A stretch of DNA of 64,000 bases from Candidatus Bathyarchaeota archaeon. Lineage in GTDB: Archaea > Thermoproteota > Bathyarchaeia > Bathyarchaeales > Bathycorpusculaceae. The notes beneath the pieces are model-generated. The model was not told where the DNA came from. It searched no databases and saw only the letters and a program-made list of their open reading frames with translations. The stretch covers positions 1,376,001 through 1,440,000 of the forward strand of contig OY970280.1 in NCBI GenBank assembly GCA_963715865.1. The letters are read 5' to 3'. Below are positions 52,797-56,822 of this stretch, piece by piece (position 1 is the first letter of the stretch; the number at the start of each line of letters is the position of its first letter). Both the position numbers and the translations under genes were made by a program.

Positions 52797-52832
52797 CCAA
52801 ATTTACCTAAAAAATGGTTAGCAATAAAAGGG

Positions 52833-52891
52833 TTTTTGTCAAGGTTTCTGGACTAAGCGCCTATGATTTAGTCAAGGTTTCTTGACAAAAA
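52833..52891. repeat. Two dyad boxes GTCAA-GGTTTC-T(G/T)GAC at 33-bp period
   Basis: Boxes at 52838-52853 and 52871-52886; the outer flanks TTTTT...AAAAA and inner flanks TAA...TTA are mutually inverted. Confidence 0.75.
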
Positions 52892-53333
52892 CAAGTTTGC
52901 TATAAGTTTGGTAAATTTTGGGTAGGGGGAGGGGGTATACTATTTGTTTTGTTGTTTGGGTAGCAAATAGCGGGAGGGGGGAGGCAGGTACTGGTACCTC
53001 TTCGTCTGTTCCGTTATCTTCTCTAAAGCCTGTTACATTTCGTCTGCTCAACGGGATTGCTATCGGGATTGGTTTTCTTGGTACAACCTCAAAAGTATAG
53101 AGTACGCCATCTGTTCCCCAACCAGTCATTAATTTCTTGTTTTTGTAGGAGTCATCACAGAAATAGATAACCTCTATTCTTTTACATTCTTTTAATTCCA
53201 GATTGCATTTATGTGCTTCAAAATTTTCAGAGGATAAAATTGTATTACAATGTGAGCATTTAACAATTGCAGAATTAGGGTTTGCTGACATCTCCAATTT
53301 CGGTTCCCCACTGCCCCTTGTTTTTATTAGCAT
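52872..53333 (-). CDS. Passenger gene: hypothetical C2HC Zn-finger protein reading out through the left TIR
   Basis: CSHC...HKC; the TIR itself encodes TDEEVPVP, after which the ORF runs into low-complexity flank sequence. Confidence 0.6.
   Translation of the reverse strand: MLIKTRGSGEPKLEMSANPNSAIVKCSHCNTILSSENFEAHKCNLELKECKRIEVIYFCDDSYKNKKLMTGWGTDGVLYTFEVVPRKPIPIAIPLSRRNVTGFREDNGTDEEVPVPASPLPLFATQTTKQIVYPLPLPKIYQTYSKLVFVKKP
52979..52986 (+). repeat. 8-bp target-site duplication, left copy (GGGAGGCA)
   Basis: Identical octamer at 56666-56673; both copies abut the TIRs. Confidence 0.88.
52987..53010 (+). repeat. Left terminal inverted repeat
   Basis: GGTACTGGTACCTCTTCGTCTGTT versus the reverse complement of the right end, GGCTCTGTTACCTCTCCGACTGTT. 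Confidence 0.88.
53031..53048 (+). repeat. Left subterminal repeat
   Basis: TGTTACATTTCGTCTGCT versus the reverse complement of 56615-56632, TGTTACTTTTCGTCTGCT. Confidence 0.8.
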
Positions 53334-53748
53334 CTACGATATTGTGCAATCTTTTGTTATCAATGACTAATTTATCATTCAACTTTTGCAAGGAATCTAA
53401 TCTTTGTTTTAGCCGTTCAATTTCTTGCTCATAGTCTTTCTGCTGTTGGTTTTTATCTTTAATTGCTTCATAGGCACGCGCTTTCTGTACCAATGCTGTG
53501 AGGTCAAATGCTGATTCAACAAGTTCGCGGTCACTTCCAAAGTCTTTTTGAAACTGATATGTAGCTATTTTAAAACCTAATTCGTTAGGGAAAGATGTAG
53601 TGTGCTTCTTAGCTCTTCTAAAAATATCTTTTCCGTCAACATAGGTATATGTTAAAGTTTTGACTCTTTCAGCTATTATAACTATGTCGCCTTTTGACCA
53701 TTGGTCAATGAATTTCTCTGCTTCGTCAATTATCGCACCTTTTGGCAT
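53275..53748 (-). CDS. Passenger gene: hypothetical protein with C-terminal coiled coil
   Basis: MPKGAIIDEAEK...; heptad-like QQQKDYEQEIERLKQRLDSLQKLNDKL. Confidence 0.7.
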   Translation of the reverse strand: MPKGAIIDEAEKFIDQWSKGDIVIIAERVKTLTYTYVDGKDIFRRAKKHTTSFPNELGFKIATYQFQKDFGSDRELVESAFDLTALVQKARAYEAIKDKNQQQKDYEQEIERLKQRLDSLQKLNDKLVIDNKRLHNIVDANKNKGQWGTEIGDVSKP

Positions 53749-53761
53749 CAATCTTCGCTCA

Positions 53762-53935
53762 CTATACATCTAACTTCCTCACAATGGCAACCCTGCAGCC
53801 GTTTATTATCTCCATTTTCCACTCAAGTTTATCGCTTTCTTTTAGGTCAAGAAAAGCTACTATTCCTTCTGGAACTGTAGCTCGCAAAGATGGCGAGCCT
53901 GGTCTTGCTTCAGTTAATTTACTTTTCAAACTCAT
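53762..53935 (-). CDS. AbrB/MazE-type DNA-binding protein (57 aa)
   Basis: Manual translation MSLKSKLTEARPGSPSLRATVPEGIVAFLDLKESDKLEWKMEIINGCRVAIVRKLDV; GAAGGT RBS-like motif; below the track cutoff. Confidence 0.8.
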   Translation of the reverse strand: MSLKSKLTEARPGSPSLRATVPEGIVAFLDLKESDKLEWKMEIINGCRVAIVRKLDV

Positions 53936-53958
53936 TTTAGTTACCTTCTAAAGACATA

Positions 53959-54038
53959 TACCTACAGGTAGTATTTAAGTTTAATTATTGGTTTGCCAAT
54001 ATGTTTAAATATGTAGTTATATATACTATGTGTAGGTA
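53959..54038. promoter_or_regulatory. Divergent promoter region between the AbrB-like gene and the transposase, with inverted operator-like boxes
   Basis: TACCTACA (53959-53966) and TGTAGGTA (54031-54038) flank an AT-rich core with TATA-like elements on both strands. Confidence 0.6.
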
Positions 54039-54045
54039 GATTAAC

Positions 54046-55175
54046 ATGGCAACAAAACTAACCTCAAGAGAAGAACGCGGTCAAGCAATAGCAGAACTTG
54101 GCGGACAAGTAAAACGAATAGACGGTTGCACTTACACCGTTAAGTCACAGTCTCATAACGGAGAGTACACCGTAAGAAAGTTGACAATGAATGGATATGT
54201 GAATGCCCAGATAACAAGTACCGACACCTAATTTGCAAACATATCTTTGCGGTTGATTTCTCTAGCCAATTAAGAAGTGAGGTGGCAGTTAACCGAGTTA
54301 TTCAAGAAGTTAATGTTAGCAACTGTCAATTTTGCGGTTCAAATAACCTCAAAAAAGACGGCTTGAGAAAAAACAAGTCAGGAACAATTCAAAAATTCTA
54401 TTGCCGAGAATGCCAACACTACTTCACCATTAACATTGGCTTTGAACGTATGAAGCATAATCCTCAAGCCATAACAACCGCTATGCAACTTTATTTTAGC
54501 GGTGAAAGTCTAAGGAATACTCAAAAGTCTCTGAAACTGTTAGGCGTTGACGTTACTCATAAAACGGTTTTCATGTGGATTAAGAAGTACGTTGCTTTGA
54601 TGAAAGATTATGCTGACAGAATAACTCCCAATGTTAGCGATACATGGAGAGCAGATGAAATCTATGTTAAGGTTAGGGGCAATCTGAAATATTTATTTGC
54701 CATAATGGACGATGAAACCCGTTTCCTCATAAGTCAAGAAGTCGCTGAAACCAAAGAAAAGCATGACGCAAGAAACCTATTCATGATGGCAAAACGGTTA
54801 ATGGAAAAACAGCCAAAAACCCTCATAACAGATGGTTTATCCTCTTACTTTGTAGCATCAAAAGAAGTTTTTGATGAAGCCCAACATATACGCAAAATAA
54901 CGCTTGATGGAAAACTGCATAACAATAACAAAATGGAGCGCATGAATGGAGAAATCCGTGACCGAGAAAAGACGATGCGCGGATTAAAAACTAACGATAC
55001 AGCAATCCTAACGGGTTATCAGATATTTCATAACTACATTCGACCGCACCAAGGCTTAGACGGAAAAACGCCTAGTGAAGCATGCGGAATAATGATAGAG
55101 GGAGAAAACAAGTGGAAAACTCTGATTCAGAACGCTTCAAAAGTCCAAGATTTACCGAACCCAAAAGGCATCTAA
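54046..55175 (+). CDS. IS6-like DDE transposase with N-terminal SWIM and Zn-ribbon domains, split by a -1 frameshift at ~54177-54180
   Basis: Joining 54046-54177 to the -1 frame gives ...YTVRKVDNEWICECPDNKYRHLICKHIFAV (SWIM), then CQFC...CREC, an HTH, WRADEIYV, LITDGL and NNKMERMNGEIRDR. Confidence 0.88.
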
Positions 55176-55227
55176 TTAATACGGAAAAACAAGCGGAAAA
55201 TCCTAATACAAAACGCAAGTAGAAAAA

Positions 55228-55434
55228 TTATGCACGAGGTTTAATATACCAATTTTGGTCAATCAAGCAATAGCCATCTTCAACCTTTGCCATTTGGGTT
55301 CTGTGTGAACTTGACCCTTTAACAGGTTTGTTATTCTTTTCAATGGTTCTTGCATATACTGTTGCTGAAACAAAATAAACTTTACACCCAGCCGAAGGAA
55401 ATATATCACTTTTGTTCTGATTTTGATTGGGCAT
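55228..55434 (-). CDS. Passenger gene: small hypothetical protein
   Basis: 68-aa ORF overlapping the stop of the upstream wHTH gene by 29 nt. Confidence 0.45.
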   Translation of the reverse strand: MPNQNQNKSDIFPSAGCKVYFVSATVYARTIEKNNKPVKGSSSHRTQMAKVEDGYCLIDQNWYIKPRA

Positions 55435-55858
55435 CCTTGCACTCTACCTTGTTTTCTGTACCTAATTCATTCAAGGCTTTTAGCACAATCTCGGGGTCTA
55501 AGCATAGGTCAAAAATTATGTCGCTTGTTCTTGCGCCATTATGTTGCTCTATATAATTAAATACAAGTTTTTTAGCTTCATCTATTGGAATGTCACCTTT
55601 TAACTCGATTAATTTTGTATTATCGTCAACAACTAAGTAACCACTAACAGGTTGCTTAAGGTCTGGAATAACCCAATTTGAACAAGAAGTTAAATCACCG
55701 CGCATTCTAAAGTCTGCGGTTCCTGTAATAGTTATAGCTGCATTTTCAGTTGTAATCGACTGAATCTGAGCCCCAGTAAGTACTAAAGAATAATTTTTGC
55801 AATCTAAGGAATAGCTTTTTGTTGCTTCTTCTTTTATTTTTTGAAGCGTCACTAACAC
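55406..55858 (-). CDS. Passenger gene: hypothetical protein with C-terminal winged helix
   Basis: EAKKLVFNYIEQHNGARTSDIIFDLCLDPEIVLKALNEL...V. Confidence 0.75.
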   Translation of the reverse strand: MLVTLQKIKEEATKSYSLDCKNYSLVLTGAQIQSITTENAAITITGTADFRMRGDLTSCSNWVIPDLKQPVSGYLVVDDNTKLIELKGDIPIDEAKKLVFNYIEQHNGARTSDIIFDLCLDPEIVLKALNELGTENKVECKDAQSKSEQK

Positions 55859-55865
55859 CTAACCG

Positions 55866-56081
55866 CTAAGCTACACTAACTACTTGTGCAGATTTTATTA
55901 GGTAGTTGGGTTTACCTGTTAAAGGGTCTGTCTGTTCTAAGCGATATACCTCTGTGAGTATAACATGAACTTTTATTGTGTTGCCATCGGACAATGTATA
56001 TTCGCTAAAATTTTCACCTTTAATTGTAAACTGAACTTGTTCGGCATCTAAAGTTTGCCCATTGGGTAATGTTAATTTCAT
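55866..56081 (-). CDS. Passenger gene: small beta-rich hypothetical protein (71 aa)
   Basis: EYTLSDGNTIKVHVILTEV...GKPNY; paralogous to 56226-56513; GGTGTGG RBS-like motif. Confidence 0.8.
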   Translation of the reverse strand: MKLTLPNGQTLDAEQVQFTIKGENFSEYTLSDGNTIKVHVILTEVYRLEQTDPLTGKPNYLIKSAQVVSVA

Positions 56082-56225
56082 CTAGCCACACCTTAATTTC
56101 TTCTAGAAGTAAATCATTATATCTTTTATGAATTATTAAAGATTATTCCAAAAACTACTTAAGACCGCGTGAAAGCTTGAATAGAAAAAACCCTGCTTGG
56201 TTTTGCCTTAAGTTTTTGCTAGTAA

Positions 56226-56513
56226 TTAGGTTGTGTAAGCCTGTTCACTTTTTTTGTTGACTGTACTCTGAGTTGGTATAGGCGGTGCTGGAGCATAAAA
56301 CGTCTTGTCCTTTGTCTCAATTTCAACTCTTGGATTCAATATAAAGTTGTAAATAGGCGTACCATCAGGTGCTTTTCTATCTATAGCAACACCTACTCTT
56401 GCCAGTTCTACATGAACTTTTAGCAGGTTACCATCTTCTAAACGGAAATTTACCACGTTGCTGCCAACAAGCTTTGCGGAAATTTGCTTAAACTTTATTT
56501 GTTCCTGAGTCAC
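56226..56513 (-). CDS. Passenger gene: small beta-rich hypothetical protein (95 aa)
   Basis: NFRLEDGNLLKVHVELARV...GTPIY; paralogous to 55866-56081. Confidence 0.8.
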   Translation of the reverse strand: MTQEQIKFKQISAKLVGSNVVNFRLEDGNLLKVHVELARVGVAIDRKAPDGTPIYNFILNPRVEIETKDKTFYAPAPPIPTQSTVNKKSEQAYTT

Positions 56514-56614
56514 AAGACATCACTAGTTTCTTATTGAGAGCACGATGTATAATAAACTTTGGAACTGTTTGAGATTCTTGCTTTCGAGTCAAGTCAAATA
56601 ACTTTACGCAAATT

Positions 56615-56632
56615 AGCAGACGAAAAGTAACA
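56615..56632 (-). repeat. Right subterminal repeat
   Basis: AGCAGACGAAAAGTAACA, an inverted 17/18 match to 53031-53048. Confidence 0.8.
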
Positions 56633-56641
56633 TGGAGATGA

Positions 56642-56665
56642 AACAGTCGGAGAGGTAACAGAGCC
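56642..56665 (-). repeat. Right terminal inverted repeat
   Basis: AACAGTCGGAGAGGTAACAGAGCC; its reverse complement begins GGCTCTGTT, like IS6-family ends. Confidence 0.88.
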
Positions 56666-56673
56666 GGGAGGCA
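56666..56673 (+). repeat. 8-bp target-site duplication, right copy (GGGAGGCA)
   Basis: Identical to 52979-52986. Confidence 0.88.
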
Positions 56674-56822
56674 GGTACTTTTTAGCTGGTAAATATAGGT
56701 CTAAAAAGCAGGCAGGTAGAGGGCAGGGTCATTTTTGTTTGCAAATCTGCTTTTCAAAAAATTAGGTACCGATGAGGATAGGCGCAGTATTCTCTTGGAA
56801 TTTACGCTTTAGCTTTGTTTTG

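Follow-up and report, generated by a model that had tools for sequence, protein, structure and literature searches.

A probable IS6-related, cargo-carrying transposon in a Bathyarchaeota genome and its archaeal relatives

We analysed a window of 64,000 nucleotides (nt) from a Candidatus Bathyarchaeota archaeon (GenBank assembly GCA_963715865.1, contig OY970280.1, positions 1,376,001 to 1,440,000), in which a first-pass annotation had proposed a complete 3.7-kb transposon related to the IS6 insertion sequences (IS) and carrying a regulator and six passenger genes. Our results make it very likely that positions 52987-56665 of this window (3679 bp) correspond to a single inserted transposon, non-composite and cargo-carrying, with a DDE transposase of the IS6 family in the broad sense. 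With equal confidence we assign the element to a real family of cargo-carrying transposons related to IS6.

Results

Ends, duplications and relatives

The element is bounded by terminal inverted repeats (TIRs) of 24 bp, the left one at 52987-53010 on the plus strand (GGTACTGGTACCTCTTCGTCTGTT, beginning GGTACTGGTACCTCT; family consensus GGTTCTGTTACCTCT) and the right one at 56642-56665 on the minus strand (reverse complement GGCTCTGTTACCTCTCCGACTGTT, beginning GGCTCTGTTACCTCT). Both are GG-tipped and they agree at 19 of 24 positions. Identical copies of an 8-bp target site duplication (TSD), GGGAGGCA, lie immediately outside, at 52979-52986 and 56666-56673. Repeats and duplication had been given in the first-pass annotation and were confirmed by direct reading and by a repeat search, which recovers the same TIR arms as a 20-nt pair of 85% identity; an alignment of ends also supports both TIRs. 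The left-end variant of this element, GGTACTGG, is also found in two relatives (L006 and L008). Further inside, a subterminal repeat, TGTTACATTTCGTCTGCT at 53031-53048 on the plus strand, is matched at 17 of 18 positions by a partner at 56615-56632 on the minus strand (94% in the repeat search; the right copy is also supported by the alignment of genome ends). The left box recurs at three other ends in the genome, and is probably a second, putative transposase-binding site.

The repeat search lists 181 inverted pairs in 5.7 kb, so that the TIR of the window is not significant alone and the weight is carried by other evidence: the ends of the host genome align from the GG onwards, the ends recur in a family with differing TSDs (an exact 8-mer match has a chance of 1.5e-5 per pair), and contigs break at 56661/56662. 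In the host genome (2.35 Mb), the right-end sequence is present at two further places (547173 and 612772), and when four independent ends of this genome are aligned, similarity starts exactly at the GG and covers the terminal and subterminal boxes, in the order GGYTCTGTTACCTCT, about 20 nt, then TGTTACTTTTCGTCTGCT. The position 56661/56662 is also the exact point at which contigs from metagenomes end or begin to differ. In a metagenome from peat, one contig of 1701 nt (depth 74) spans 55111-56661 and stops at the element end, and several different sequences run on past this point, the pattern left by a repeat inserted at many sites.

Relatives were collected by a family search, which gave 78 related loci from metagenome-assembled genomes (MAGs) and was followed by a 15-mer end-motif scan, and by a complementary search that used no motif and required inverted repeats with GG tips between exact 8-bp repeats. 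Both searches together yielded 59 elements, each flanked by an 8-mer of its own and between 2031 and 8093 bp long (median 3318), in which the end motif GGTTCTGTTACCTCT and 8-bp duplications of different sequence bracket homologous transposases; the concern that homologous transposases might lack these TIRs was therefore answered in the opposite sense. The duplication is exact in 58 of the 59, including the window element, and has one mismatch in L022. The TIR consensus over all 59 (GGTTCTGTTACC) combines the GG start with an internal cTGTt motif. By MAG label, the 78 loci belong to Bathyarchaeia, Nitrososphaeria (Nitrososphaera, Nitrosocosmicus, Nitrosotalea and Nitrosotenuis), Asgard (Atabeyarchaeia), Thermoplasmata and a few bacterial bins. 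The contigs from bacterial bins carry archaeal-type elements (L013, L024 (Limnocylindrales bin), L021 (Saccharibacteria bin) and L027), for which mis-binning is probably a better explanation than cross-domain transfer.

Several loci show elements as discrete units. The 2193-bp contig L015 is bounded exactly by two element ends, identical copies occupy different sites within one MAG (L032/L033 and L078/L079), and in L074 one element is nested in another. A JGI contig (L103) holds a copy 91% identical to window positions 54639-56661 that carries the genes p95-p71-p150-p68 described below; the right-arm cassette of the window thus travels with the element. The right end of this copy lies inside a large-terminase gene or at its 3' end (Terminase_6N/6C; 702-2138, 2067-2081), which shows insertion into a tailed-virus or provirus genome. 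Two MAGs (L017 and L055) share both an 8-mer (GTCTTTCA) and a right flank, so this insertion is apparently orthologous; the two elements measure 2689 and 4662 bp, respectively, and the transposase gene of L055 is broken.

Core genes and cargo

Core and cargo were surveyed in 56 elements. The invariant core consists of the ends, a transposase gene of about 375 codons and a small divergent gene for a predicted DNA-binding protein, AbrB-like in the window. Besides the transposase gene the elements hold from two to more than six genes, and both arms beyond the core vary between elements. Restriction-modification genes, of type IIG or type I-like and with the domains N6_Mtase, Eco57I and HSDR_N, are present in eight elements, one of which has a separate S subunit; others carry membrane proteins or further transposase genes. 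Thirteen elements have a left arm of about 1.0-1.2 kb with three minus-strand genes of similar sizes, the last of which crosses the TIR in a constant frame, as would be expected if the three left-arm genes (regulator, coiled-coil protein and end protein) formed a conserved accessory module needed for transposition. We consider such a module unlikely, because at least three groups, without detectable similarity to one another, can be told apart among the middle and end proteins, and because other left arms, of 0.35-4.8 kb, carry restriction-modification enzymes, membrane proteins or the regulator alone.

Transposase gene

The transposase gene (54046-55175, plus strand) is single and central, separated from the left end by about 1.05 kb and from the right end by 1.5 kb, with cargo on both sides. 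With one transposase gene and its own two ends the element is non-composite, and this organization stands as first described. If read through, the gene encodes about 376 amino acids (AA), with SWIM finger, Zn-ribbon, helix–turn–helix (HTH) and DDE parts, which agrees with the enlarged, IS6-related enzyme that had been proposed. The protein scores 131.3 bits with the NCBIfam model NF033587 (transpos_IS6; cut-off 125) and 75 bits with Pfam PF13610, DDE_Tnp_IS240 (7e-21; cut-off 27), while the SWIM match is weak, as is an NCBIfam match to an IS1/IS1595 zinc domain. The D/D/E positions are conserved in the transposase alignment. More than 5500 database proteins match; among the matches listed, lengths are 305-461 AA, mostly about 375, in a single frame, most are from Bathyarchaeota, and those that are named are called 'IS6 family transposase'. 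A PDB sequence search with an intact transposase gave no match.

In the window copy the gene is frameshifted. Frame 1 runs from 54046 to about 54180 (MATKLTSREERGQ...GEYTVRK), and the -1 frame continues from 54180 to 55175 (VDNEWICECPD...CKH...) with the SWIM finger, followed by the CxxC...CxxC ribbon, the HTH and the DDE domain. The A-run at 54177-54180 is one A short (AGAAA[A]GTTGAC): comparison with relatives implies AGAAAAGTTGAC in place of the AGAAAGTTGAC read in the window. The closest relatives (85-91% identical), and indeed all aligned relatives, have one continuous frame across these positions, and the DNA of L110 reads straight through (...GEYIIRKVDDEW...), which argues that the frameshift is a mutation or an assembly error and not programmed. 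A programmed -1 recoding that limits transposase output, as in IS1 and IS3, in a fully active copy would suit the position of the shift, within A-AGA-AAG and between the N-terminal DNA-binding part and the remainder of the protein; it is nevertheless very improbable, given the uninterrupted frame of the homologues, an A3 in the window where relatives imply A4, and the lack of an X XXY YYZ heptamer. From its sequence, the window copy would be either recently inactivated, in which case it could move only with transposase supplied in trans, or intact with a homopolymer assembly error. The proposed completeness of the element therefore holds for its structure, as ends and duplication are intact, and not necessarily for its function, as this copy may be non-autonomous owing to the frameshift.

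Regulator gene

Divergently from the transposase gene, at 53762-53935 on the minus strand, lies the gene for a predicted AbrB/SpoVT-like DNA-binding protein of 57 AA, with a profile-mate in Pfam MazE_antitoxin (1.3e-4) and weak fold matches. A small predicted DNA-binding gene of 45-79 AA, divergent and starting 70-130 bp upstream of the transposase gene, is found in 54 of the 56 elements. This fixed position makes the AbrB-like gene part of the core rather than a passenger: the claim that the element has its own regulator is upheld, as is the presence of cargo, and the passengers number five instead of six. By reading of the open reading frames (ORFs), about 26 of the small genes, including that of the window, are AbrB/SpoVT-like and about 18 encode ribbon–helix–helix proteins; minor classes are a CxxC...CxxC zinc ribbon (about 4) and a helical 'MVRKEILG...' protein (about 6). 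Pfam matches to the two main classes have modest E-values (RHH_3, 1.6e-4; Omega_Repress, 2.4e-4; MazE_antitoxin, 1.3e-4). An AlphaFold model of the window protein, from a 15-sequence alignment, has a pLDDT (predicted local distance difference test) of 68, and its best fold matches, although weak, are nearly all of the AbrB superfamily (C56 of pSSVi, C68 of pSSVx, MazE, Sso7c4 and AbrB-N); a PDB sequence search with the regulator profile gave no match.

The region between the two divergent genes contains an inverted pair of operator-like boxes of 22 nt, 82% identical. Box 1 (ATATACCTACAGGTAGTATTTA, 53956-53977) is next to the regulator promoter, and its core, ATCTACCTA, is conserved in L005, L022 and L010 while the adjoining bases diverge. 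Box 2 (…GTGTAGGTAGAT, 54020-54041) is located between a TATA-like box, TTTAAATA, and the transposase start codon; six related elements retain its core, TAGGTAGAT, immediately before the start codon. The inverted boxes overlie the two divergent promoters, a layout that would be expected of an autoregulated repressor that controls the transposase gene.

Target choice and stacking

When the 59 target sites were rebuilt, positions 13-18 outward from the first TSD base read T-W-T-A-W-A, preceded by A-rich positions 9-12. T is found at position 13 in 56 of 97 half-sites and at position 15 in 60 of 97, and A at position 16 in 58 of 97 (binomial p = 4e-7 to 2e-12). The motif lies 5 bp outside the duplication, on both flanks and as mirror images, as expected from a two-fold symmetric transpososome, and its sequence corresponds to the archaeal TATA-box consensus. 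ORFs of at least 70 AA that read away from the element and start 35-90 nt out are present at 19 of 38 motif flanks, compared with 8 of 43 non-motif flanks (Fisher p = 0.004), which suggests that many elements lie about 5 bp upstream of a core promoter, where the duplicated 8-mer would leave the promoter-proximal sequence intact. TATA-like targeting as an intrinsic property of the transposase has moderate support from these patterns.

Two further observations concern target sites. The left flanks of L006, L012, L014 and L018 are four independent insertions beside nearly identical TATACCCCCC-TTATAAATAG, a candidate recurrent promoter-like target in Bathyarchaeia genomes. In a subgroup with GGTAACG tips (L061, L065 and L078), the palindromic 8-mer TTACGTAA repeatedly flanks the elements in different loci, which suggests a sequence-specific hot spot for this subgroup; L079, an identical copy, has another 8-mer.

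At 21 of 118 flanks, the end of another element is found exactly 8 bp away, compared with 0.12 expected by chance; one or two of these 21 match the end motif poorly (L074 and L050). Stacked junctions repeat one 8-mer: L006 has AAACTTTA, AAACTTTA and then AAACTTGA (one mismatch), L010 has TTGAATAT at no fewer than three junctions, at least, and L061 has TTACGTAA three times. A stacked junction is also present in the host genome, at G000 547173/547182. As the stacked partners differ in length and end variant, they represent separate insertion events, each into the duplication next to a resident end. In the outward direction from the duplication, an element end (GGTTC-TGTTAC) partly resembles a half-site (NNNNN-TWTAWA) in matching register, and such mimicry of a half-site by the resident end may explain the attraction.

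Cargo genes and insertion site of the window element

The two left-arm passengers are on the minus strand. The outermost, endA (52872-53333), encodes a small C2HC-type zinc protein in no Pfam or NCBIfam family; its ORF exits through the left TIR and stops 38 codons into the flank, and homologues at the equivalent position in L005, L022 and L055 are 57-69% identical. An outermost left-arm gene without a stop inside the element is also seen elsewhere (window 52872-53010; L005, L006, L008, L012, L015-L018, L022 and L037). It reads through the TIR in an identical frame in 12 of 13 cases, from three unrelated protein groups, and acquires a ...TDEEVTE-like C-terminal tail with a stop in flanking DNA; this read-through is either selected or a by-product of the repeat sequence. 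The second passenger, p164 (53275-53769), is a 164-AA protein with a C-terminal coiled coil (weak coiled-coil Pfam matches), for which an Atlas look-up gave nothing usable; homologues occur in L005 and L022. The pair formed by the zinc protein and the coiled-coil protein is common to L005, L022 and L055 only.

The right-arm genes are also all on the minus strand, and their order p95-p71-p150-p68 is kept in L103. p68 (55228-55434) is followed by p150 (55406-55858), which belongs to no Pfam family and whose Atlas feature matches (0.79-0.81) are all to winged HTH clusters, a weak lead to a possible C-terminal winged helix. p71 (55866-56081) is a small all-beta paralogue of p95 (reciprocal tblastn, 41% over 32 AA; 26% identity in the alignment). 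p95 itself (56226-56513) is a conserved all-beta protein of 95 AA with 119 unnamed homologues (52-100% identity), which are found in archaeal chromosomes and mobile elements, some in ordinary chromosomal contexts; its Atlas matches are unnamed archaeal and viral clusters. Its AlphaFold model (pLDDT 76) has four strands, and a fold search gave weak, mixed OB/NAC-like matches, none of them convincing.

The intergenic DNA on either side of the element (52921-52986 and 56674-56790) is made of repeated units, in each of which a G-rich tract (GGTAGGG / GGGAGGG) comes after an AT-rich hairpin (xxTACTTTTT...AAAAAGTAxx), and the element is placed between two of them. The same unit is present at G000 948512, 1018539, 1181645 and 2052460. 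Rfam and tRNA scans of window positions 50-60 kb gave no match, including for these units by Rfam. Just upstream of the insertion site, an inverted repeat with 25-nt arms (52832-52892; TTTTGTCAAGGTTTCTGGACTAA ... TTAGTCAAGGTTTCTTGACAAAA) has many matches per genome in congeneric genomes and may represent a MITE-like (miniature inverted-repeat transposable element) or regulatory palindrome family. Elsewhere in the host genome, solo or degenerate ends and transposase fragments are found at G000:C1 547002-547196, 601808-601822, 612722-612772, 623565-624296 and 764708-764776. These include a junction of a right end, 8 bp and a left-end-like sequence, a 67%-identical transposase gene without its first 80 or so codons, and a 23-codon fragment; they are remnants of older insertions.

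Discussion

We propose that the transposase would bind the terminal and subterminal boxes and make 8-bp staggered cuts. It would choose its target by a preference with two-fold symmetry, for T-W-T-A-W-A placed 5 bp beyond either side of the cut; in archaea such a target would often be a TATA box, and the element would then land just upstream of a core promoter. A resident end would mimic a half-site, so that new copies would often be placed exactly 8 bp from an old one. The small protein would repress both divergent promoters and thereby limit transposition. Movement is probably replicative, via a cointegrate resolved by host recombination across the duplicated element, by analogy with IS26. 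Replicative movement and repression by the small protein both have moderate support.

Several points count against our interpretation of 52987-56665 and of its family. Both flanks were searched in 40 relatives, and no orthologous empty allele was found, because left- and right-flank matches were not syntenic (they were on separate contigs or distant from one another); the insertion in the window is therefore deduced from the duplication and the family. It is the sole full copy in the host genome, the rest being the 67%-identical partial transposase gene and solo ends. Its transposase gene is frameshifted at a site without read coverage, since four metagenome runs provided no contig covering 54177-54180 at high identity. 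The window protein itself has weak support for an AbrB fold (0.068 in Pfam, and E about 0.5-3 in Foldseek). At the insertion site of the window element, the match to the target motif is weak and confined to one side (TTTTTA), and survivorship of intergenic insertions may contribute to the motif, although its fixed register and two-fold symmetry are unexplained by survivorship and argue for choice. Finally, the transposition chemistry, the binding of the repressor and the cointegrate steps are drawn from family analogy.

Two other explanations of the locus have very little left in their favour. That an ordinary short IS6 insertion sequence, with the transposase alone, sits amid chromosomal genes, the ends 3.7 kb apart and the 8-mer having arisen by chance, would accord with the canonical IS6 length of 0.7-0.9 kb (PMC7986276) and with how common 20-nt inverted repeats of 85% identity are, but is hardly credible, since no end motif adjoins the transposase gene, the family motif occurring in the window at 52987 and 56665 only, since the architecture with its duplications recurs 59 times, and since the right arm moves with the transposase gene to another site. 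Equally remote is the integration of a plasmid or virus fragment by site-specific recombination, which could draw on the length of the direct repeat, 14 bp in full (GGGAGGCAGGTACT) and not 8, as attachment sites, on p95-like proteins in virus-labelled clusters and on the related copy beside a terminase gene: the element encodes neither an integrase nor a recombinase, the additional GGTACT opens the hairpin and G-rich unit present at four element-free genome sites, so that the duplication proper is 8 bp, and the 8-bp duplications of the relatives are of unrelated sequence, as is typical of transposition.

The preferred reading, insertion of a cargo-carrying transposon, can be extended to a wider proposal, for which we see the case as evenly balanced: that these elements form a widespread, undescribed group of archaeal IS6-related unit transposons with a fixed repressor gene of interchangeable fold (AbrB, ribbon–helix–helix, Zn-ribbon or helical); that a transposase-intrinsic, two-fold symmetric TATA-like targeting directs them to sites just upstream of core promoters, and attraction by resident ends gives head-to-tail stacks at one 8-mer; and that they routinely carry restriction-modification and virus-associated genes between chromosomes and viruses of Bathyarchaeia, ammonia-oxidizing archaea and Asgard.

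The mobile elements of uncultured archaea, among them Bathyarchaeia, soil ammonia oxidizers and Asgard, are poorly charted, and surveys treat the IS6-like transposase genes of these organisms as one-gene insertion sequences. Here such genes mark transposons of 2-8 kb that shuttle restriction-modification and other genes, including into viral genomes, which changes the annotation of such regions and provides a concrete vehicle for gene flow in these lineages. A TATA-like target in fixed register, together with 8-bp stacking, could explain how the elements avoid gene disruption. For biochemical work, the intact relatives are a source of a compact archaeal transposase whose target preference is defined.

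Comparison with known elements

IS6-family elements measure 700-890 bp, a few Clostridial members with zinc-finger extensions reach 1.2-1.76 kb, and archaeal members are short (PMC7986276, PMC6807381). In IS6 reviews cargo is moved only between two IS copies (PMC7986276, PMC6807381), and ISDsp3 is the one member for which a passenger gene is listed (PMC7986276). The IS-like transposons in a survey of thaumarchaeal mobile elements have one or two genes, and IS6 goes unmentioned there (PMC6563490); a survey of archaeal IS from 2026 is silent on passenger genes (PMC13343696). Outside ISfinder and TnCentral, we found no description of the present architecture in the searchable literature, and this large group of IS6-related, cargo-carrying archaeal transposons is apparently undescribed. 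In the broad sense the elements belong to IS6, with matches to the IS6/IS240 catalytic models, GG-start TIRs containing cTGTt and 8-bp TSDs. IS6 transposition proceeds solely via cointegrates, with cargo moved between two directly repeated IS copies, and the structure seen here is a lone transposase gene and one pair of ends around the cargo. Their lengths, 2031-8093 bp, depart from the simple IS6 organization (one gene, 0.7-0.9 kb, up to 1.76 kb in clades h and i), and an extra N-terminal region of about 140 AA, together with an identity to IS26 of 27%, places them outside IS6/IS26 in the strict sense, which is defined by closeness to Tnp26 (Harmer & Hall 2019); these authors would exclude such elements (PMC6807381). 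With one transposase and variable passengers inside their own ends, they fit the descriptive class of transporter IS or unit transposons.

The closest named transposases are those of ISCpe7-type Clostridium IS6 elements (about 31% identity over residues 104-361), the 'long' IS6 of clade h (Varani et al. 2021; PMC7986276) or clade VII (Harmer & Hall 2019; PMC6807381). Both groups have an N-terminal zinc-finger extension before the HTH and DDE parts, IS6-type ends and 8-bp duplications. However, ISCpe7-type elements are bacterial, measure 1.2-1.3 kb and contain the transposase gene only, whereas the element described here is archaeal, has a further SWIM finger, a separate regulator gene and a subterminal repeat, and its family holds 0.9-6.5 kb of additional genes (regulator and cargo) inside its own ends. 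IS26 and IS6 proper share the DDE_Tnp_IS240 domain, the GG tips, cTGTt in the TIR and the 8-bp duplication; the 27% identity with IS26 extends over 48% of the length. IS26 has 820 bp and one gene, and its cargo travels only in translocatable units or, between two IS copies, in pseudo-compound transposons; in our elements the cargo lies within a single pair of ends, together with a single transposase gene. ISDsp3 of Dehalococcoides resembles our elements as an IS6-family member with an extra gene inside its ends (a transporter IS), but it is bacterial, a single copy of 1456 bp with one hypothetical gene (PMC6807381), in contrast with a large group that has a conserved regulator and diverse multi-gene cargo.

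A comparable organization is found in unit transposons of the Tn3 family, which likewise combines ends, transposase, regulator and passengers (including addiction-type genes) in a non-composite and probably replicative element. Tn3 elements differ in having a Tn3-type transposase of about 1000 AA, 38-bp inverted repeats, a 5-bp duplication and a dedicated resolvase, and none of these hallmarks was seen in our domain scans or element survey. As for stacking, IS30 and IS911 target inverted repeats and place new copies beside a resident end, with abutted ends whose spacing matches the length of the duplication; both are of other families, with a spacing of 2-3 bp, and move by copy-out/paste-in via circles. 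In the elements described here, by comparison, copies are spaced by 8 bp, and a single 8-mer can hold a stack of different family members (L010 and L061).

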